Both the position numbers and the translations under genes were made by a program. DNA of 39,041 nucleotides, taken from assembly GCA_937944235.1 (NCBI GenBank), contig CALDYZ010000031.1, positions 1-39,041 of the forward strand, in the 5' to 3' direction. Positions within the stretch are counted from its first letter, which is position 1. The number at the start of each line of letters is the position of its first letter. This document shows, piece after piece, positions 15,316 through 28,024 of the stretch. Under the pieces are notes generated by a model. It had not been told where the DNA came from. It did no database searches and saw nothing but the letters and a program-made list of their open reading frames with translations. This stretch comes from Candidatus Dojkabacteria bacterium. GTDB lineage: Bacteria > Patescibacteriota > Dojkabacteria > J137.

Positions 15316-15993
15316 ATGTTGAATAAAGACTCTTCAAAAAAAATATCGCTTAATAGAAATAAAACAACATTAGTGAGTAGGATGTTTTATCTTCTTTTAT
15401 TTTTCGGTGTCTCACTAGGTATAAGTTATTTTGTGAATTACACACAAATTCAGATTTTATCAAAACCTTTGATAGAAATTACTCCTGAAAATTATGGTCC
15501 AGAGATCAAGAAAAAAATATCGATGAATGATATTGTATCAATAGTTGGTACACCAGATTTTATGATGCAAGTATCGCAAGAGCCGTTGAAAAAAAATTCT
15601 CAGTCAATTACTTACTTTTATACTGGTTTAAAAGAGTATGGTTTTGATTTTGTTGTAAGAATCAAAAAATATAAATTGGTATCTTCACAGCAAAATTTTA
15701 AGGGTAGGGTACTAAATATTAACGATACAGATTTTAAAACTAGGATCAAAAATAGTTTAAATAAAGAAATTAATTTAAATGAACAGGCAAACAGAAGTTT
15801 TGCTGAAAATTTAGATGAAAAAACCAAGAATCAGATAATAGCAAACTCATCTGGTCAGTTTACAAATTCTACGCTCTTGATATTAGATGAAGAATATATG
15901 ACTTTACAAGATTTATATGTTCAAATGTTTCTGGGTGTGTTTGGCTGGACCGCCATACTAGTAGCTATTTTTAATAAAAAGATTTTTTATTAA
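15316..15993 (+). CDS. Hypothetical membrane protein (TM at both ends)
   Basis: 225 aa ORF, co-oriented and tightly packed. Confidence 0.75.
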   Translation: MLNKDSSKKISLNRNKTTLVSRMFYLLLFFGVSLGISYFVNYTQIQILSKPLIEITPENYGPEIKKKISMNDIVSIVGTPDFMMQVSQEPLKKNSQSITYFYTGLKEYGFDFVVRIKKYKLVSSQQNFKGRVLNINDTDFKTRIKNSLNKEINLNEQANRSFAENLDEKTKNQIIANSSGQFTNSTLLILDEEYMTLQDLYVQMFLGVFGWTAILVAIFNKKIFY

Positions 15994-15994
15994 T

Positions 15995-16432
15995 ATGAAG
16001 CTGTTATACTATTTTGTTTTTTTACTTGTTTTGTCGTTTATCGTGACTTATCCTTTAAATTTTTTTAAGAGAGATGGTGTGTTGGGTATACAGTCAGATA
16101 TTATAACTGAACAAGATAAGGATGTTTCTTTGTTAATTTTTGACAAAAATCAACATCAAATTCTACAAAAGACTTTTTCCTCAAAGTCTGTGGATTATGA
16201 TTTTATATTAGAATTAGAACATAAATATACGATTGTTTTTTTTGCTCAGAAAAATATTGAATTAGATAAATTAAAAGTCATAACACCTTCAAGTTTGAAT
16301 GTTCATATAGAAAATATTAATACTTTAGACTTAGATTTCGACTATGAGCTGCATTATTTTGACTTATTATCGACTGAAACAGGCGATAATAAACAGAATT
16401 TGGGAAGTTTTGTAGTTAAATTTCTTCTGTGA
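15995..16432 (+). CDS. Hypothetical exported or membrane-anchored protein
   Basis: 145 aa, hydrophobic N-terminus followed by VLG; starts 1 nt after the previous stop. Confidence 0.7.
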   Translation: MKLLYYFVFLLVLSFIVTYPLNFFKRDGVLGIQSDIITEQDKDVSLLIFDKNQHQILQKTFSSKSVDYDFILELEHKYTIVFFAQKNIELDKLKVITPSSLNVHIENINTLDLDFDYELHYFDLLSTETGDNKQNLGSFVVKFLL

Positions 16433-17217: not shown

Positions 17218-20200
17218 ATGCTTGGAAATTACAGATTAAATGTAAAGCGAAGATATTTAAATTCTACCCCCGTAGGAACCTTGGAATTTGACCTTTTAGC
17301 TACTCAAAAACAATTGTTTAGAGAATTTGTAGAGAGAGGTTTTCAAGATCTTTTTGACGAAATAAACCCTGTTAATGATTATTCTAATTCTATATGGCAG
17401 ATTACATTTGAAGAATTTATATGGGGTCAGCCTAAATTTACATTTGCCGAAGCGCAAAACCTAGGTCAATCCTATGAAGCCCCTGTTTATTCGATAGTGA
17501 AATTAGTTAACAAGAAAACAGGTGAAATTAAAAAACAAAAGATTTACATTTGTGATGTTCCGCTGATGAGTGATAGGGCATCCTTTATGTATAATGGTAA
17601 TGAACGAGTTGTAATGTTACAAATTTTACGATCTGAAGGTTTGTTACTAGGAGAATCCAAAGCATCTACTCAAAAAAATAGATTGTACTCTGTAAAGTTG
17701 ATGCCGCAAAGAGGTAATTGGTATGAATTTGAACTAAACAAATATGGGGTCATGAGTATAAAACTTTTGCAAAAAAGACCAAGAATATTGCTTACCACTT
17801 TACTTAGGGCTATAGGATATAGTACTGATGATGAAATTAGAAAGGCTTTATCAGATGTTGATAATGGAGATATCAGTTTTGTTGAAGCAACTTTGGAAAA
17901 GGATGTAACTAAAAACACGGAAGAAGCTTTAATAGATATTTATAGAAAGTTAAGACCTGAAGATGCTGTATCAATAGAAAATGCAAGAAATCTAATCGAT
18001 TTAATATTTTTTAATAAAAGGAAGTTTTACCTAGGTAAGGTAGGGAGGTATAAGTTAAATAAAAAATTAGGTATTAATGATGAGATAACTCTTGATGATT
18101 ATTTGTTAAAGAAAAAGGATATTGTAAACATAATCAGATTATTAATTCAACTTAACAACGGACATGTTCCTCCTGATGATATTGATAGTTTACAAAACAG
18201 AAGAATTAGGGGAGTTAATGAACTTTTGTCTGAGAAAATGAGGGTAGGAGTGTTAGCTTTAGAGAAATCTATAAAAGATAAGATGTCGACTTTTTCACCT
18301 GATGATAAAGTTACGCCTGCTATGTTTATAAACACCAGACCAGTATCCTCAGCCATAAACCAATTTTTTGGAAGTTCAGCTCTGACAAGATTTATGGATC
18401 AGATAAATATTCTCTCAGAGCTGGAAGTTAAACGTAGAGTTACTGCAGGAGGAGCTAGAGGTTTAACTCCGGAGAGAGCTACTTTTTCAGTTAGGGATGT
18501 TCATAATTCCCATTATTCCAAATTTTGTCCAATTACAACGCCTGAAGGAACTTCGGTAGGTATGGTTAATCAATTAGCTGTTTACTCACGAGTAAATGAA
18601 TATGGTTTTTTGGAAGCACCATACAGACAAGTGATATCAGTTTTTAAAGTTAATGAGGATAATATTAATGATCCAGAGTTTCAGAACAGATATTTGGATA
18701 ATGATATAAAAGGTATAGCCAATAAAGGTGATGCTTTAACTCCTGAGATAGTAAGAAAATGTGTTGAGAAAAACATTGAAGAAATATACATACAACCATT
18801 TGTAAGTAATAAAAAGATAATGTATTTAGATGCAGATGATGAAATACATCACAAAATAGCCAACTATGATATAAAAATTGATCAGTATGGAAATATAATA
18901 GATGATTATGTTTATGTGAGGGACGGTCAAAATTACACAAAAGTTAAATTACACCAGATTGATTGTATAGATGTGAGTCCGGCACAAATAGCTGGACTAG
19001 GATTGGCTTTGATTCCATTTGCGGGTAATGATGATCCTAATAGAACTTTGGTTGCTGCTAAAACTCAGACGCAATCAGTTCCTCTCATCAAACCAGAACA
19101 GCCTATAATTGCTAGTGGTTTTGAGCATATTGCGGCTAAAGCTAGTGGAAGGACTGTATTTGCAGAATATGATGGTACAGTCGACTATGCAGATGCAGAT
19201 ACAGTTTTAGTAACATACAACACAGGTAAAGAAAACATAAAAAGAAAATACCTAGCTGAGAAATATGTACGAACTAACCAAGACACTTCGTTTAATCAAC
19301 AAGTAAAAGTACGCACTGGTATGGTGTTTAAAAAAGGCGATGTTTTAATCGATGGACCATCTACATTAGAAGGTGAATTGTCTTTAGGCGTGAATTTAAG
19401 GGTGGCTTATGTTGTGTATGATGGATACAATTATGAAGACGGTATAGTAATATCCGAAAGATTAGTAAAAGAAGATGTTTTGACTTCGGTTCACATAAAT
19501 GAGTATTCTCAAGAAATACGTGAAACTAAGTTGGGAGATGAAGAAATAACTCGAGATATTCCCAATGTTGGAGAATCACAGTTGAAAAATTTAGATGAAG
19601 AAGGGTTTGTTAGGATTGGAGCACATGTCAGCTCTAATGACATTCTTGTTGGCATTATAACACCTAAAGGAGAATCAGAATTAACTGCTGAGGAAAAACT
19701 TCTACGCGCAATATTTGGAGAATATGCGAGAGATGTAAAGGATAATTCTTTAAGAATGCCAAATGGAGAGCATGGTGTCGTAATTGGTATACAGGTTATA
19801 GATAAAGCAAAAGGAGGTAAATTGAACCCTGGTGTAATAAAATTAGTTAAGGTCTGGGTAGCAAAGAAGCATAAAATTTCAGTAGGTGATAAATTGACGG
19901 GTTACCATGGAGATAAAGGTATTGTAACTAAAATAGTACCAGAATATGATATGCCATACACTGAAGATGGAAAACCAGTTGACATATTACTTGGACCTGC
20001 CTCAATGATTAGAAGAATGAATTTAGGACAGATATTAGAAACACATCTAGCAAATATAGCTAAACAAAAAAATGAATTTTTAGTAGTCGAGCCGTTTTCA
20101 AGATATGAAACTAAAGGTTATATAAACGAAGCTAAACAGATGGGTATAAATACTGATCCTAAGTTTACATTGTATGATCCAAGAACAGGAGAGCCTTATG

Positions 20201-20739
20201 AAAATAAAATTACTGTAGGTTACAGATACTTTTTCAAGTTGAATCATCTTGCTGACGATAAAGTACATGCAAGATCTACTGGGCCGTATACTTTAGTTAC
20301 TCAGCAACCTGTAAGAGGAAAAGCACAAAAAGGAGGTAGAAGATTTGGAGAGATGGAAGTTTGGGCGCTAGAAGCTCACGGAGTTCCTAATTTACTGCAT
20401 GAAATGCTCACAATTAAATCAGATGATGTAGTAGGTAGGGCTGCTGCGTATAAGGCCATAATAACAAATCAAAAAATTAATCCTCCTAAGATTCCAGAGT
20501 CGTTCTCTGTATTAGAAAAAGAGTTATTAGGCTTAGGTATTAAACTTACCAAAATTGAACCTCAAGTTGATGATAGATTTGCAGATATGTCGTTGGAAGA
20601 AATAATAGATAGTATAGGTAATGTAGATGAACGTGAATTAGAAGAGAGTTCTGACTTTGAAATAAAAAATACTGACACTGCATTTTCTGAGTCTGAAGAG
20701 TTTTCAGATTTACAGATAAGAGATGTTAATTTTGAATAG
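17218..20739 (+). CDS. rpoB: DNA-directed RNA polymerase subunit beta (highly divergent)
   Basis: NGNERVV, VRDVH..HY...CPI.TPEG, GYNYEDG, GDKL.G.HG.KG, RMNLGQ, HARSTGPY, RFGEMEVWALEA. Confidence 0.99.
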   Translation: MLGNYRLNVKRRYLNSTPVGTLEFDLLATQKQLFREFVERGFQDLFDEINPVNDYSNSIWQITFEEFIWGQPKFTFAEAQNLGQSYEAPVYSIVKLVNKKTGEIKKQKIYICDVPLMSDRASFMYNGNERVVMLQILRSEGLLLGESKASTQKNRLYSVKLMPQRGNWYEFELNKYGVMSIKLLQKRPRILLTTLLRAIGYSTDDEIRKALSDVDNGDISFVEATLEKDVTKNTEEALIDIYRKLRPEDAVSIENARNLIDLIFFNKRKFYLGKVGRYKLNKKLGINDEITLDDYLLKKKDIVNIIRLLIQLNNGHVPPDDIDSLQNRRIRGVNELLSEKMRVGVLALEKSIKDKMSTFSPDDKVTPAMFINTRPVSSAINQFFGSSALTRFMDQINILSELEVKRRVTAGGARGLTPERATFSVRDVHNSHYSKFCPITTPEGTSVGMVNQLAVYSRVNEYGFLEAPYRQVISVFKVNEDNINDPEFQNRYLDNDIKGIANKGDALTPEIVRKCVEKNIEEIYIQPFVSNKKIMYLDADDEIHHKIANYDIKIDQYGNIIDDYVYVRDGQNYTKVKLHQIDCIDVSPAQIAGLGLALIPFAGNDDPNRTLVAAKTQTQSVPLIKPEQPIIASGFEHIAAKASGRTVFAEYDGTVDYADADTVLVTYNTGKENIKRKYLAEKYVRTNQDTSFNQQVKVRTGMVFKKGDVLIDGPSTLEGELSLGVNLRVAYVVYDGYNYEDGIVISERLVKEDVLTSVHINEYSQEIRETKLGDEEITRDIPNVGESQLKNLDEEGFVRIGAHVSSNDILVGIITPKGESELTAEEKLLRAIFGEYARDVKDNSLRMPNGEHGVVIGIQVIDKAKGGKLNPGVIKLVKVWVAKKHKISVGDKLTGYHGDKGIVTKIVPEYDMPYTEDGKPVDILLGPASMIRRMNLGQILETHLANIAKQKNEFLVVEPFSRYETKGYINEAKQMGINTDPKFTLYDPRTGEPYENKITVGYRYFFKLNHLADDKVHARSTGPYTLVTQQPVRGKAQKGGRRFGEMEVWALEAHGVPNLLHEMLTIKSDDVVGRAAAYKAIITNQKINPPKIPESFSVLEKELLGLGIKLTKIEPQVDDRFADMSLEEIIDSIGNVDERELEESSDFEIKNTDTAFSESEEFSDLQIRDVNFE

Positions 20740-20766: not shown

Positions 20767-23700
20767 ATGATAAAAGATTTTAAAGCTCTAAAGATTTCTA
20801 TAGCTTCTCCAGAAGAAATATTAGCAATGTCTCATGGGGAGGTTACTAAAGCAGAAACTATCAATTACAGGACTTTTAAACCCGAGCCGCAAGGCTTAAT
20901 GGCTGAAGAGATTTTTGGTCCTAGCAAAAATTTTGAATGTTATTGTGGCAAATACAAAAAAATAAGGTATAAAGGGATTGTTTGTGATAGGTGTGGAGTA
21001 GAAGTGACTCACAAGCGAGTACGAAGAGAGAGAATGGGACATATAAAACTGGCAGCGCCGGTTGCTCATGTGTGGTTTTCTAACGGAATACCAAACAAGT
21101 TATCTTTAATACTAGATATAACACCAAAAAAATTAGAGGCTATTGTTTACTACACTAGGTACGTAGTTACTGAAGTAGACCAATCAGCTAAAAAAGATAT
21201 TTTGAATAGTCTGCCTGATTTAAAAGCTCGTGAAATAGAAAAAGTAGACCAAGAAGCGGGTTCCAGGATATTAGAGATAGAGAATCAGTATGCTCAAGAA
21301 GTCGAAGAAATAAAAAAAGCATTCAAAGATAAAAAAAAGATTGATCTACAGTTAGTTACATTAGAAAAAAATAAAAATGAAGAAATAGCCAAAGTAAAAG
21401 CTGCCGCTAAACAAAAATTAAATACTCTTGAATCGAAATTTTCAAACATGAAGTCATTAATTGAATCTATTGAACCAAGGTCAACTTTATCAGAAGAGGA
21501 CGTACAACTATTGGATGAGTACGATCTTTATTTCTACAACACAGCAATGGGAGCCGAGGCATTGAAAGAAATTTTGGAGAAAATAAATTTAGATGATGAA
21601 ATTTCGGCTTTATCGAATGAATTAAACAAAACAAAGACGGATCTTAAAAAAATGAAGTTAATACAAAGATTGAGATTGTTAAAAGGTATGAAGAGGTCGG
21701 GAATAAGACCAGAATGGATGATATTAACTGTATTACCTGTCATTCCTCCAGACTTAAGACCAATAGTCCAGCTTGCTGGGGGCAGGTTTGCTACTTACGA
21801 TTTGAATGACCTATACAGAAGAGTTATAAATAGAAATAACAGGTTGCAAAGGTTAATAAATTTAGGAGCCCCTGAAATTATTTTGAGAAATGAGAAAAGG
21901 ATGTTACAAGAGGCGGTTGATTCTTTATTAGATAATAATCATAAACCTGGATCACCAGCTATGAGTTCAAAAGGTATTCCTTATAAGTCGCTTTCTGACA
22001 TGTTAAGAGGTAAACAAGGTAGGTTTAGACAAAACCTGTTAGGCAAGAGAGTGGATTATTCAGGTAATGCAGTGATAGTGCCTGGTCCAGAGCTAAATTT
22101 TGATCAATGTGGTATCCCAAAGGTTATAGCCCTAGAACTATTTAGACCTTTTATTTTAAGAGAACTTATACTGAGAGGTCACGCTCAAAATCCTACAAGA
22201 GCCAAATATATGTTAGAAAATCATGAAGATGTCGTTTATGACATTTTGGAAGATGTCATTAAAGGGCGACCAGTCTTGTTGAATCGAGCTCCAACTTTGC
22301 ATAAACAATCTATACTTGCTTTTTATCCAGTTTTAATTGAAGGTAATGCTATCAGGCTACATCCGATGACTTGTACTGGTTTTAATGCCGATTTTGACGG
22401 AGATCAAATGGCAGTTCATTTACCTTTGTCTGAAGAAGCTGTTATTGAGGCAAAAGAGAAGATGTTTCCAGTTAGTAATATTTTAAATTTAAGAGACAGT
22501 TCACCGATAGTGAGTGTGCAAAAAGACATGGCATTCGGTATATATTTTTTGACAAAAATGAATGAGCACAATGCAGAACAGAAGTATTATTTTAGCTTAG
22601 ATTCTTTGATTGCGGACTACTATAGGGGGAACATTAAGTTTTATACATGTCAAAAGGTTTTACACAAAGGAGAGTTAATATTGACATCTGCGGGACGAGC
22701 GATATTCAATAGCGCATTGCCAGATGATTTTGGATATGTTAATAAGACATTGAGTAAGTCAGATATCTCTAAAATATCAGCTGAGTTGTTTGATAGGTTT
22801 GGTAGTACGGTAGCAATACAAACTTTAGACAAGATAAAAAATCTTGGTTTCCAGTATGCAGGTAAATATGGGTTTTCGGTTGCGATGGATGAGTTTGATT
22901 TTGGATTAGACGATCAAATAAAAAAATTATATGAGGAATATGAAAAAAAATATGATTTCTATTCAAAAGATAGAGATGAGGGTTTTTTAACTGCTGCAGA
23001 AACAAAGCGGTTACAGAAGCAAGCTTGGGTCGAAACTGCTGAAAAGGTTCAAGAGATAGTATGGTCCAAAGCACAAGAAATAGGTACAAATTTTTTGGAT
23101 ATTCAAATGTCAGGAGCAGTACCTACAAAAGAGTACGTAAAAAAGATTTCTGGTACTGTAGGTGTGATTACTGATCCCACTGGTGGAATCGTAGATTTAC
23201 CGATGAAAAATAATTTCTATCTTGGAATGAGTAATTTTGAATATTTTGTAGCTGCTAAAGGAGCTAGAAAAGGTTTTGCTGATGTGGCATTAAGGACTGC
23301 TGACTCTGGTTACTTAACTAGACGTCTACATGAGTTAGCTCAAGATGTTATAACTATTCAACATGATTGTGGTACTGTAGAGGGGATAAAACTCTACAAA
23401 AAAGAGAAAAGAAGTATGAATTTTGCTCAAAGAATAAGAGGAAGGTACGTAACTCAAGATGTGGTTGGTACTGGTGGTAAGATTTTGGTTAGGAAAGGAG
23501 ATTTAATAAACAAGACGCTAGCATCTGAAATAGCAGAAGATGATGGGATAGAATTCGTTGAAGTGAGATCTCCACTAAAATGTAAAACACCTCACGGTGT
23601 GTGTACTAAGTGTTATGGCCAAGACAATGGAACAGGGCAGCTGGTTAATCTTGGGGTTGCAGTTGGTACTATTGCATCCCAATCTTTAGGAGAACCTTCA

Positions 23701-24621
23701 ACCCAGTTAACACTAAAATCAAAATCTGATGCAAGAGCAATGAAGACTGATGTAACACAGGGACTACCAAGACTCGAAGAATTGTTAGAAGTTAGAGATC
23801 CAAAGAGTCAGGCTACATTGTCAGAAATTTCTGGTAAAGTCGCCATTGTCAATGTAAAGGGCAAGATAAAAGTTAGAGTTACGGGAAATAGGGATGATGT
23901 ATTTGTTATTGATGTTAGTGAATATGATGTTAAGGTAGTGAACAGAGAAAAGGTTATTAAAGGGCAATTAATAGCAGTTAGTAATAAGAAAGAAATTTTA
24001 AGTCAGTATGATGGAATTGTGGAAATAAATGATAATAATTTATGCATAAGATATTCAATAAAAGATGAGGTAGAATATGAGGTTGACAACATAATAAATG
24101 TTTGCGTAAAAGATGGAGACATACTGGAGAGAGGTGATCCTATTACTTATGGATCTTTAAATCCAAAAGATCTCATGATTTTAAAAGGGGTAGAAGCAGC
24201 TCAGCGATACATAATTAATGAATCGCAAGCGATATACGGAGGAAATGGTATTGACATTGATGATAGACATTTAGAGATAATCTTGAAACAGATGACGCGC
24301 TTTGCTGTTGTTACGGATGGAGGTGATTCTGAGTTATATTACGCCGGTGATTACGTTGACAAAATAGATATAGCTCAGGAAAATAATAGGTTAAGTGCCG
24401 AAGGTAAAAAAACTATAGCTTACAGAGAAGAGATATTAGGTATTTCTAATGCAGCTTTGAAGACAGAAAGTTTCTTAGCAGCTGCGTCGTTCGAACAGCA
24501 GGTAAGGGTATTGACAGAGGCAGCGATACTGGGTAAAATAGACACATTACGTGGGTTAAAAGAGAACATAATAATCGGTAAGCCAATTCCTCTTGGACCT
24601 TATGTAGTTGAAGTTAAATAA
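20767..24621 (+). CDS. rpoC: DNA-directed RNA polymerase subunit beta-prime (divergent trigger loop)
   Basis: Zn ribbon (C.CGKYK...CDRCGVEVT), GKQGRFRQNLLGKRVDYS, NRAPTLH, NADFDGDQM, TADSGYLTRRL, SFLAAASF. Confidence 0.99.
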   Translation: MIKDFKALKISIASPEEILAMSHGEVTKAETINYRTFKPEPQGLMAEEIFGPSKNFECYCGKYKKIRYKGIVCDRCGVEVTHKRVRRERMGHIKLAAPVAHVWFSNGIPNKLSLILDITPKKLEAIVYYTRYVVTEVDQSAKKDILNSLPDLKAREIEKVDQEAGSRILEIENQYAQEVEEIKKAFKDKKKIDLQLVTLEKNKNEEIAKVKAAAKQKLNTLESKFSNMKSLIESIEPRSTLSEEDVQLLDEYDLYFYNTAMGAEALKEILEKINLDDEISALSNELNKTKTDLKKMKLIQRLRLLKGMKRSGIRPEWMILTVLPVIPPDLRPIVQLAGGRFATYDLNDLYRRVINRNNRLQRLINLGAPEIILRNEKRMLQEAVDSLLDNNHKPGSPAMSSKGIPYKSLSDMLRGKQGRFRQNLLGKRVDYSGNAVIVPGPELNFDQCGIPKVIALELFRPFILRELILRGHAQNPTRAKYMLENHEDVVYDILEDVIKGRPVLLNRAPTLHKQSILAFYPVLIEGNAIRLHPMTCTGFNADFDGDQMAVHLPLSEEAVIEAKEKMFPVSNILNLRDSSPIVSVQKDMAFGIYFLTKMNEHNAEQKYYFSLDSLIADYYRGNIKFYTCQKVLHKGELILTSAGRAIFNSALPDDFGYVNKTLSKSDISKISAELFDRFGSTVAIQTLDKIKNLGFQYAGKYGFSVAMDEFDFGLDDQIKKLYEEYEKKYDFYSKDRDEGFLTAAETKRLQKQAWVETAEKVQEIVWSKAQEIGTNFLDIQMSGAVPTKEYVKKISGTVGVITDPTGGIVDLPMKNNFYLGMSNFEYFVAAKGARKGFADVALRTADSGYLTRRLHELAQDVITIQHDCGTVEGIKLYKKEKRSMNFAQRIRGRYVTQDVVGTGGKILVRKGDLINKTLASEIAEDDGIEFVEVRSPLKCKTPHGVCTKCYGQDNGTGQLVNLGVAVGTIASQSLGEPSTQLTLKSKSDARAMKTDVTQGLPRLEELLEVRDPKSQATLSEISGKVAIVNVKGKIKVRVTGNRDDVFVIDVSEYDVKVVNREKVIKGQLIAVSNKKEILSQYDGIVEINDNNLCIRYSIKDEVEYEVDNIINVCVKDGDILERGDPITYGSLNPKDLMILKGVEAAQRYIINESQAIYGGNGIDIDDRHLEIILKQMTRFAVVTDGGDSELYYAGDYVDKIDIAQENNRLSAEGKKTIAYREEILGISNAALKTESFLAAASFEQQVRVLTEAAILGKIDTLRGLKENIIIGKPIPLGPYVVEVK

Positions 24622-24639: not shown

Positions 24640-25095
24640 ATGGCAAGAATATCACAATTAGTTAGAAAACCAAGAAAATCAAAGACTAAATTGGTTAGGT
24701 TTAAAGGTATAGATTTTAAAGAAAGTGTAAAGTATAAAGCATTGTATTTTAATTATAATGGAATAGAGAATACTTTTTATAAGAAGCCATCGCCTTTTAA
24801 AAGAGGAATTTGTGTCAGAGTATATACTCAAACACCAAAAAAGCCTAATTCTGCTATAAGAAAAGTTGCGAGAGTTAGGTTGTCCAATAGACAATTTGTA
24901 ATATCCTATATACCAGGTGAAGGACATAACTTACAGGAACATTCAGTAGTTTTAGTTAAAGCTGGAAGAAAACCTGATCTACCCGGTGTAAAGTATCAAA
25001 TAGTCAGAGGCGTTTACGATGCATCTCCTGTTGATAAAAGAAGGCAAGGAAGAAGCAAGTATGGTAGGTCTAAACCAAAAGACAATCAAAAATAA
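24640..25095 (+). CDS. rpsL: 30S ribosomal protein S12
   Basis: [40 protein letters not shown]. Confidence 0.98.
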
Positions 25096-26620: not shown

Positions 26621-28024
26621 ATGGCAGAGGAAAAAACTAACAATACATCATTATTTTTTAGCGAAGATTTTGATAATAGTAAGAAACAAAGTGAGAAAGA
26701 TTCAATTTCATTGCAGTATCAGCTTAAAAATTCTACTTTAATTAATTTGATTTCATCCAAATATTTTTATTTTTTCCTCGGCATAGTATCCATTTTACTG
26801 ATAATCATAGGTGGTGTAATTTTATCAAATGTATTTTTATCTGGTATACCAGTAAATTACTCATACAATAAAAACAAATTTTTGAATACTCAGGAGGAGA
26901 CAGTCTATATCTATGAAGAGAAGATTGACAATGCTGTCAATCCGGAATTTTCCTTAACACCGGTTAAACAAAAGATACATGTACCGAATGACTTTGTCTA
27001 TTTATTAGGTAGTAATTCTTTACTAAAAGGATCAAGTAAAATATATAAGATTTTTCCTCAAAGTCAGCAAGTTTATTTTTCATCTGGCAAAAATATTGTA
27101 GATTTTTTGATCTACGAAAATGAACTGATGATTTATGTATCACAGAACCAACAATTTCAACAATTATGGTTCAGAGATGAATCATATGAATCGATTTTAC
27201 TCTATACAACGGATTCAAATGAAAGAGTTTTATCTTTTGTAATTGATTTTAATAATTTATCTGTATTTTTTCTATCCGTAAAAGACTCAATAATCACATT
27301 AAACAGAATCGACAGAAGTATCAATCACAAATCTGTAAAAATTTTAGGCAGTTTATCGACCAGATCTAAAATTACTGAAATTGACAATGATGAAGTTTAT
27401 ATTATAGATGAAGAAATTTGCTATAAAATGCCTTTAAAAGATCTAATTTTGAGTGAAGTTGCTTGCGAAAAAACAAAAAAACATCTGGGAGAAAAGGTTT
27501 TTAAAATCAGGCCAAAGTTAAGGAATAACTATACGAGCAATGATGGCTCTGTAATACAAATGTACAATCCTGACATCGACAGTTATGTGAACTTATTCAA
27601 TGCACCTCAAGGAGATTTATATATTCAACAATTTTTAAATAATAACAAGATTTTGTTATTAAAATATAAATTTCAATTTAATGCTTATTTAAATAGATTT
27701 GATCCAATTTGGCAGTCTTTTGTATTATTTGACTATAATGCCAAGTCATTGCAGAACTTGGCTAGTTCATTACCAAAGTCGAATTCAGTACTTGAAAACA
27801 TAAAGATCTTTCATGTTGTTGATAGCTTATACGCGATTGATTTAAATGTTACAGACAAATTGTATAGGTATGATCCTAATAATGCAGTTTCGAATTTATC
27901 CTTACCGTCTACTTCCTTATCTCAATCTCAACACACAAATAGCCACTGGTTGGAAATAGATTTTATCAATGCAGAGAATTATGAGAAATTAACTGTGTTT
28001 GATCCTGTAAAAATATTTATATAG
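26621..28024 (+). CDS. Single-TM hypothetical protein with a large beta-rich external domain
   Basis: 467 aa; TM about aa 48-73, followed by repeated short beta-strand patterns (possibly propeller-like). Confidence 0.75.
   Translation: MAEEKTNNTSLFFSEDFDNSKKQSEKDSISLQYQLKNSTLINLISSKYFYFFLGIVSILLIIIGGVILSNVFLSGIPVNYSYNKNKFLNTQEETVYIYEEKIDNAVNPEFSLTPVKQKIHVPNDFVYLLGSNSLLKGSSKIYKIFPQSQQVYFSSGKNIVDFLIYENELMIYVSQNQQFQQLWFRDESYESILLYTTDSNERVLSFVIDFNNLSVFFLSVKDSIITLNRIDRSINHKSVKILGSLSTRSKITEIDNDEVYIIDEEICYKMPLKDLILSEVACEKTKKHLGEKVFKIRPKLRNNYTSNDGSVIQMYNPDIDSYVNLFNAPQGDLYIQQFLNNNKILLLKYKFQFNAYLNRFDPIWQSFVLFDYNAKSLQNLASSLPKSNSVLENIKIFHVVDSLYAIDLNVTDKLYRYDPNNAVSNLSLPSTSLSQSQHTNSHWLEIDFINAENYEKLTVFDPVKIFI

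Follow-up and report, generated by a model that had tools for sequence, protein, structure and literature searches.

Altered F-loop and bridge-helix residues in the RNA polymerase beta-prime subunit of a Dojkabacteria order, best seen as the periphery of a stepwise rewiring around the active site

In Escherichia coli RNA polymerase, the trigger-loop residue H936 of the beta-prime subunit has been described as forming a hydrogen bond to the beta-phosphate group of the incoming nucleoside triphosphate (NTP), M932 stacks on the base and T786 touches it; the gamma-phosphate is held by beta R678 and R1106, the alpha-phosphate by beta K1073, and the leaving pyrophosphate (PPi) by beta-prime R731 and beta R1106 (PMC13198411; this and the other papers cited are drawn on from part of their text). 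When closed, the trigger loop docks on the F-loop through the backbone pairs Q736-I937, Q739-H936, L746-A941 and A748-G939, and a water molecule bridges R744 and G938 in the E. coli Michaelis complex (PMC13198411). The same 2026 structural paper presents the four residues that directly touch the incoming NTP as universally conserved in all multi-subunit RNA polymerases. Beta K1073, R678 and R1106 form, together with beta-prime R731, a basic cluster beside which tagetitoxin is said to act (PMC5856549), and Q504 and K598 are found in the E-site, where a Q504R substitution increases intrinsic cleavage (PMC6237748). In the present work, the rpoC gene, which encodes beta-prime, was analysed in a stretch of 39,041 nucleotides from Candidatus Dojkabacteria (contig CALDYZ010000031.1 of assembly GCA_937944235.1; hereafter, the window), in which several of these residues are different. 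An initial annotation of the window had placed R731 and Q504 at the NTP-binding and entry site, in agreement with the phosphate contact and the E-site position reported in these papers. Residues are numbered throughout as in E. coli, with the RpoC of strain K-12 as reference.

Departures from the canonical trigger loop have already been described in other systems. In yeast, replacement of the corresponding histidine, H1085, by Ala, Asn, Asp or Phe was lethal, while Gln had a mild effect and Leu gave healthy cells, and laboratory substitutions at this histidine and at the Ala-Gly tip were mostly harmful or lethal (PMC5127505). In E. coli, H936Q had minor effects, as cited in PMC13198411. A natural case is the plant polymerase Pol IV, which carries a serine (S898) at the histidine position and whose trigger loop is described, in the part of the paper drawn on, as making no contact with the NTP, with an approximately 6-fold lower NTP affinity and a 7-fold lower incorporation (PMC11343019).

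The rpoC gene of the window occupies positions 20767..24621 of the plus strand as an intact open reading frame (ORF) of 1284 amino acids, matching the RpoC equivalog model TIGR02386 over its full length with 1305 bits, against a cut-off of 963.5. The best matches of its translation in the Protein Data Bank are beta-prime chains (E=0), and its nearest database proteins bear the source name Candidatus Dojkabacteria. It is the single rpoC match in its own genome, a patescibacterial assembly of 681,255 bases in 75 contigs and 78.6% complete, of which the window is one contig. Based on sequence comparison, the reading considered somewhat more probable than its opposite is that this is the sole and functional beta-prime subunit of the Dojkabacteria polymerase, in which the surroundings of the NTP site have been rebuilt stepwise, the dock of the trigger loop having been re-fitted and the basic cluster redistributed. 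Apart from two supposedly universal residues, His936 and R731, every test identifies the protein as an RpoC orthologue, and it is filed as RpoC despite its Ser936 because it is a single orthologue located in an rpoBC operon.

The comparison was based on a database set of 81 Dojkabacteria-like and 39 other Patescibacteria proteins, as well as on 79 GTDB species representatives, comprising 28 from the order of the window (its own genome, 23 of family f1 and 4 of family f2), 12 from the same class and 39 from other classes of the phylum, all aligned to E. coli RpoC with MAFFT. Two genomes with a partial rpoC (G020 and G028), both carrying the derived trigger-loop motif in their DNA, stood outside the alignments, and the trigger-loop codons of G006 were masked. 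The outgroups for the beta subunit were drawn from genomes; all 120 database matches listed for beta looked Dojkabacteria-like. Position 731 of the database outgroups was counted by the presence of Arg or Lys within residues 729-733, since a one-residue insertion shifts the column and made it appear, as an artefact, that six of seven rows lacked a basic residue there.

Four strings in rpoC had been flagged as altered, and all of them are in frame, SGAVP starting exactly at 23110 and the others at or beside the places given. The E-site segment VSVQKDM (residue 582, 22510..22530, E. coli 500-506) differs from E. coli by P502V, S503Q and Q504K, and SGAVP (residue 782, 23110..23124), at the end of the funnel helices where E. 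coli has SGARG (728-732), differs by R731V, which removes the PPi-contacting arginine, and G732P. In the F-loop region (23125..23244, E. coli about 733-772), the segment KKISGTVG (residue 792, 23140..23163) contains R738K, Q739K, L740I, A741S, M743T and R744V, and Q736Y, L746V and A748T are found around it. The bridge helix (23245..23337, E. coli 773-803) begins with FVAAKGARKGFADVAL (residue 827, 23245..23292) and ends with RRLHEL (residue 852, 23320..23337); it carries I774V, S775A, T776A, H777K, L783F, T786V, K789R, N792D, V801H, D802E and V803L, with T790 kept. All these features are on the plus strand. The alignment to E. coli is free of gaps over the four segments, which bears out the register used by the initial annotation, and the canonical strings that it quoted agree with E. 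coli except for the E-site, where E. coli has VPSQDV rather than a string ending in QDM.

It had also been argued that changes at several separate sites speak against a sequencing artefact, and the comparison supports this view: the same or similar residues are present in 81/81 database proteins from independent assemblies and in 28/28 representatives of the order. The flagged substitutions are inherited lineage features under selection, and they occur in a lineage with a truly altered trigger loop from which His936 is absent. Given the incompleteness of the genome and its many contigs, one might suspect faulty sequencing or assembly, a pseudogene, contamination, or a second, divergent copy accompanying a canonical rpoC. 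Against this, the reading frame is intact in the usual rpoB-rpoC-rpsL-rpsG setting, a single rpoC is found in the own genome and in 39 of 40 relatives, and the residues recur in the independent database proteins, with the trigger-loop motif in all but one of the order's 32 genomes, which leaves such an explanation with a negligible probability. In the relatives, single-contig genomes included, each search gave one rpoC match, the exception being G028, whose rpoC is split between two contigs. A second rpoC copy or an artefact was thus rejected as a source of the changes, in view of the one match per genome and the order-wide presence of the residues.

A further set of changes lies in the N-terminal arm of the trigger loop (23701..23745, plus strand), outside the interval 22495..23345 covered by the initial annotation, where M932L, R933K, T934S, F935K, H936S, I937D, G938A and G939R are found. 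Ser936 is present in 81/81 database proteins and in all 27 readable ingroup rows, one row being masked, and Arg939 in 28/28 ingroup rows and 81/81 database proteins, compared with 0/90 outgroup rows. The DNA pattern of the derived motif matches its own genome once, at 23701-23735; of the 32 genomes in the order, 31 have it once and only the masked one gives no match. It was found in 0/189 other genomes of the class, and the derived motif in 0/39 genomes sampled outside the class. The tip of the loop has a median of 0 Gly and 4 Lys or Arg residues in the order versus 3 Gly and 1 Lys or Arg in the phylum, with a median length of 11 in every group. Additionally, Q929 and L932 are kept and position 933 is Lys in the order, which retains the character of the substrate-contacting residues, and beta-prime R425, N458, D460/462/464, Q929 and T790 are kept in 28/28 ingroup rows. 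As side observations on this loop, the Ser934 codon is TCN or AGY in different genera of the order and is replaced by Asn (AAY) in family f2, the codon at position 936 is TCN nearly always across the order, and in an unrelated phylum-level Patescibacteria genome (G066) the trigger-loop His is replaced by Gln (RTFQ), while SGARG and the bridge helix are otherwise canonical.

Around this loop, several F-loop and bridge-helix changes are specific to the order. Q736W is present in 24/28 ingroup rows, the own genome having Tyr, and in at most 1/52 outgroup rows; L783F is also found in 24/28, and T786V in 26/28, Val being shared by two class-level relatives. Position 743 is Val in most of the order and Thr in the own genome, M743V being already present in the related genomes G035 and G036. 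By analogy with the E. coli docking contacts, the flagged F-loop and funnel-end residues would be partners of trigger-loop residues 936-941, or close to such partners in sequence, and it is the 936-941 region that changed. The proposal that the flagged sites co-evolved with the trigger loop thus holds for Q736W/Y, M743V/T, L783F and T786V, which arise at the same branch or next to it, and fails for Q504K, H777K/R and R731, which are older, and for R744V and RRLHEL, which are local. As a separate observation, the charges at F-loop positions 764-765 are swapped, outgroups having Lys or Arg followed by Glu (K27 and E37 of 48) and the order Glu followed by Lys or Arg (E20; K15 and R6 of 28).

The conservation of these regions within the order bears on whether they are still under constraint. 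Averaged over columns, conservation comes to 0.92 in the trigger-loop N-arm, versus 0.75 over the entire protein and 0.95 in the NADFDGD segment, and S936, A938 and R939 reach 1.00 in the 81 proteins; because the arm is so highly conserved, the rebuilt trigger loop appears to be a working, selected element. For the F-loop, the corresponding value is 0.71 in the order versus 0.85 in other Patescibacteria. This lower value, the many otherwise conserved positions altered in the class and the observation that the trigger-loop His is not strictly essential elsewhere (PMC13198411, PMC5127505) would suit an explanation by relaxed constraint, according to which slow-growing symbionts with reduced genomes tolerate a slower and less accurate polymerase, His936, R731, beta R687 and beta R1069 were lost without replacement, and catalysis owes little to the trigger loop, as it does in plant Pol IV, whose trigger loop carries Ser in place of the His and makes no contact with the NTP, the enzyme being some 6-fold and 7-fold weaker in the two measures given above (PMC11343019). 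However, few parts of the protein are as conserved as the trigger-loop arm, a fact that points to function rather than to decay, and Leu932, Gln929 and Lys933 retain their substrate-contact character; moreover, Pol IV is an accessory paralogue, whereas the polymerase of the Dojkabacteria is their only one, and there were gains of basic residues besides the losses. Relaxed constraint is regarded as an unlikely explanation, albeit the strongest of the competing ones.

Other flagged substitutions turned out to be older than the order. Lys504 is found in 26/28 rows of the ingroup, 9/12 of the class, 11/39 of the phylum and 38/39 of the other Patescibacteria, and Arg or Lys777 in 28/28, 10/12, 11/39 and 38/39 rows, respectively; Val502 is present in 22/28 ingroup rows. 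Among outgroup rows that keep the canonical [ML][RK]TFH motif, Lys504 occurs in 13/37 GTDB and 6/7 database rows, and Arg or Lys777 in 11/37 and 6/7. Because they are also present in relatives with a canonical trigger loop, Q504K and H777K/R are phylum-wide changes uncoupled from it, which removes both sites from the partners proposed for the altered loop. The initial annotation had itself named such a distribution as one that would overturn its proposal, and for these two sites it does. At the other extreme, R744V (7/28), Q739K (14/28), V801H (13/28), D802E (2/28) and V803L (1/28) are local changes, R744V and RRLHEL being confined to a sub-clade or to the own genome. These distributions also tell against the idea that the new lysines in the flagged strings replace lost Arg or His charges, K504 and K777 being old and K739 present in only half of the order; better candidates for replaced charges, judging from the alignments, are located outside the flagged interval, namely K933, K935 and R939 in beta-prime and K684 and R1105 in beta.

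The loss of R731 likewise preceded that of the trigger-loop histidine. No Arg or Lys is found at beta-prime 731 in the order (0/28 ingroup and 0/81 Dojkabacteria-like database rows), whereas a basic residue within 729-733 is present in 39/39 phylum and 39/39 other-Patescibacteria rows. In the class-level relatives, R731 is kept in only 2/12, compared with His936 in 12/12; the 10 relatives without R731 all have His936, and 3 of them retain LRTFH. The arginine was thus gone first, contrary to the suggestion that its loss was tied to the trigger-loop change, and the distribution places it at class level, earlier than the loss of His936 and later than the gain of Lys or Arg at beta position 1105, beside R1106.

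The beta subunit, encoded by rpoB directly upstream of rpoC (17218..20739, plus strand, 1173 amino acids; TIGR02013, 1197.9 bits), was considered together with beta-prime. Beta 1105 is Arg or Lys throughout the order (R27/K2, 29/29) and the class (K10/R2, 12/12), versus Ser, Ala, Gly or Gln in the phylum. In the ingroup, N684K and M685T are each found in 24/26 rows and G1260R in 24/28, R687 is replaced by Thr, Asn or Gly, R1069 by Phe or Tyr in 28/29 rows, and N1072 by Asp or Glu. In the own genome, beta has gained basic residues by N684K, S1105R and G1260R, has lost arginines by R687T and R1069Y and also carries M685T; basic side chains were thus both gained and lost, on both subunits. The direct phosphate contacts are retained, with R678 kept in the ingroup (25 Arg and 1 Lys of 26 rows) and K1073 and R1106 in 29/29 each; K1065, H1237, E813 and D814 are likewise kept in 29/29 each. 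As an additional observation, the beta 1256-1270 loop ahead of the GEME motif, which we take to be the switch-3 region, shows up to three basic gains (G1260R in 24/28, Lys or Arg1265 in 20/28 and Q1268R in 15/28).

In the beta region 505-538, which belongs to the rifamycin pocket, Q513R is present in all ingroup rows; in those ingroup rows that were displayed, position 526 has lost its His (Val in the own genome) and Thr stands at 531. Positions 513, 526 and 531 are presumably the inhibitor-contact or classical rifampicin-resistance positions. [quoted passage not shown] The alterations in the rifamycin pocket, with their presumed role in resistance, would fit this explanation. So would the changes among basic-cluster residues beside the stated site of tagetitoxin (PMC5856549). 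However, the changes are fixed across an old and ecologically diverse order instead of being patchy, and resistance usually comes from a small number of peripheral mutations that leave the trigger-loop His in place, so that an inhibitor-driven origin is judged improbable.

The order of these events was read from a FastTree phylogeny of concatenated beta and beta-prime sequences, from which the trait columns were removed (75 rows; the gappy G003, G015 and G029 were left out). The order forms a single clade of 25 rows with a support of 100, and its nearest relatives, G035 together with G036, followed by G032 and G037, all keep His936, with LHAKH, LNTKH, LDSKH and IDSKH among them at positions 932-936. 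In these four genomes, R731 and R933 are already lost, K935 has been gained and a basic residue is found at 937 or 940. Three age layers, those of the phylum, the class and the stem of the order, are thus distinguished among the beta-prime and beta changes, in addition to the local ones. The class layer, which precedes the loss of His936, comprises the loss of R731 with G732P, the loss of R933, F935K and the Lys or Arg at beta 1105; the layer of the order stem comprises H936S, I937D, G938A, G939R, K933, Q736W, L783F and beta N684K/M685T, M743V and T786V being placed at that stem or just below it.

A mechanism can be proposed for how such an enzyme would work. The trigger loop would still close on the substrate, with Leu932 and Val786 still packing on the base. 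The contact of His936 with the beta-phosphate could have passed to a basic residue of the trigger helix with a longer side chain, most likely Arg939 or else Lys933 or Lys935, a step that is proposed tentatively. An Arg at position 939 of the tip, where normally only Gly is found, should need a re-cut docking pocket, and the changes at 731-732, 736, 739, 743-748 and 783 may have arisen because of this need; therefore, the F-loop changes would follow the trigger-loop tip and not the histidine itself. Similarly, the contact of beta-prime R731 with the PPi or gamma-phosphate could have passed to the new Arg or Lys at beta 1105, beside R1106, which is held to be somewhat less probable than not. The complete version, in which His936 and Arg731 were given up, their jobs moved to Arg939, Lys933/935 and beta Arg1105, and the F-loop and funnel pocket was re-cut to admit the arginine, is considered doubtful.

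Several points weigh against the reading of a rebuilt and re-fitted active-site surrounding. Position 939 of the E. coli and yeast enzymes is turned towards the F-loop and funnel pocket, not the substrate (PMC13198411, PMC5127505), Arg939 may be structural only, and the reach of Arg939, Lys933 or beta Arg1105 to the phosphates is deduced from helix periodicity and residue numbering. Compensation may even be unneeded, considering that the trigger-loop His is dispensable in some contexts, such as E. coli H936Q and yeast H1085L, and the lower conservation of the F-loop fits relaxed constraint as well as re-fitting. On the tree, R731 loss and the gain of a basic beta 1105 each require two changes, as does the loss of His936, one of which is the separate His-to-Gln event in G066; because each trait changed only about twice, giving two independent pairs, a co-variation test has no power and the co-occurrence is a description without statistical evidence of coupling. 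On the supporting side, sixteen beta-prime positions have an ingroup residue nearly absent outside, and 8 of them belong to the trigger loop, the F-loop or the bridge helix, regions that make up 100 of 1184 evaluated positions (hypergeometric p = 1.4e-5), in a test that favours conserved regions by construction and for which 48 of the 439 positions at least 75% conserved outside would be the fairer baseline. Also on that side, AlphaFold2 models covering 595 and 610 C-terminal residues (mean pLDDT 82.8 and 81.1) show, in the own protein, a long bridge helix and two trigger helices, the first reaching 936 and followed by a 5-residue low-confidence tip, and, in the canonical relative G090, a first trigger helix ending at 933 and a 13-residue low-confidence tip, a comparison of one pair with different alignments that amounts to weak evidence. 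Separately, the possibility that the Gly-less tip is a permanently folded helix was set aside, given the mild AlphaFold2 support and the low confidence of the tip.

The rpoBC genes are followed by rpsL and rpsG; ribosomal protein S12 (24640-25095) has 151 amino acids, of which residues 1-147 cover positions 1-123 of a 124-position model, implying an apparent insertion of about 24 residues. No rplJ or rplL was recognised upstream of rpoB, and three ORFs flanking the block, 15316-15993, 15995-16432 and 26621-28024 (225, 145 and 467 amino acids), had no match to an NCBIfam model at E <= 1e-5. In one family member (G003), a second, weak RpoB-like match (C66:382-1380; 32% identity over residues 723-1064) lies apart from the true rpoB and may represent contamination or a divergent polymerase-like gene. 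GreA-family matches were found in 41/41 genomes, the own one included, 13 of them exceeding the curated cut-off; the loss of Gre factors was accordingly rejected as a correlate of the rewiring, alongside which the cleavage-factor content is unchanged, GreA being present throughout.

When compared with canonical bacterial RpoC, as in E. coli and in the Thermus, Bacillus and Clostridioides structures, the Dojkabacteria enzyme shares the full-length equivalog match, NADFDGD, R425, N458, Q929, T790, the 11-residue tip, the operon and the presence of GreA, whereas His936 is replaced by Ser, the Gly-Gly tip by Ala-Arg and R731 by Val, F-loop positions 736, 739, 743, 746 and 748 and bridge-helix positions 783 and 786 are changed, and beta has lost R687 and R1069 and gained K684 and R1105. 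With the RpoC of other Patescibacteria, of the LKTKH and MRTFH types, it shares Lys504 and Arg or Lys777 (38/39 each), Leu932 (25/39) and Lys935 (25/39). However, those proteins keep His936 (39/39 in the database set; in the 39 GTDB phylum rows, 38 have His and 1 has Gln), as well as Gly939 and an Arg or Lys at SGARG, and, unlike the Dojkabacteria order, Thr or Ser786 and Leu783. The likeness to plant Pol IV (NRPD1) is limited to the Ser at the invariant trigger-loop His position (S898; PMC11343019). Pol IV is a specialised extra beside Pol II in which other trigger-loop contact residues are lost (PMC11343019), whereas the Dojkabacteria enzyme is the only polymerase, keeps or conservatively replaces Q929, L932 and K933 and has a strongly conserved new loop. 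No paper was found that connects changes of the trigger loop, F-loop or bridge helix with Patescibacteria, the candidate phyla radiation (CPR) or Dojkabacteria, and the single paper found to contain both 'candidate phyla radiation' and 'trigger loop' deals with insertion domains.

Taken together, the flagged substitutions are best understood as peripheral to a rewiring of the active-site surroundings that proceeded stepwise and is order-wide, to which about half of them belong, the rest being older background. The Dojkabacteria order thus offers a natural case of a sole and essential polymerase without His936, the tip Gly and R731, with intermediate states displayed by living relatives, and a ready-made epistatic set of substitutions for understanding the interplay of trigger loop, F-loop, bridge helix and basic cluster. 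A further lesson is that sequence-based rules for recognising "active" polymerases fail in Patescibacteria. If the jobs of His936 and R731 have indeed moved to other residues, the role of the trigger loop as a positional catalyst would be independent of the histidine, and could be rebuilt from a different chemistry via viable intermediates that are still extant in sister lineages.

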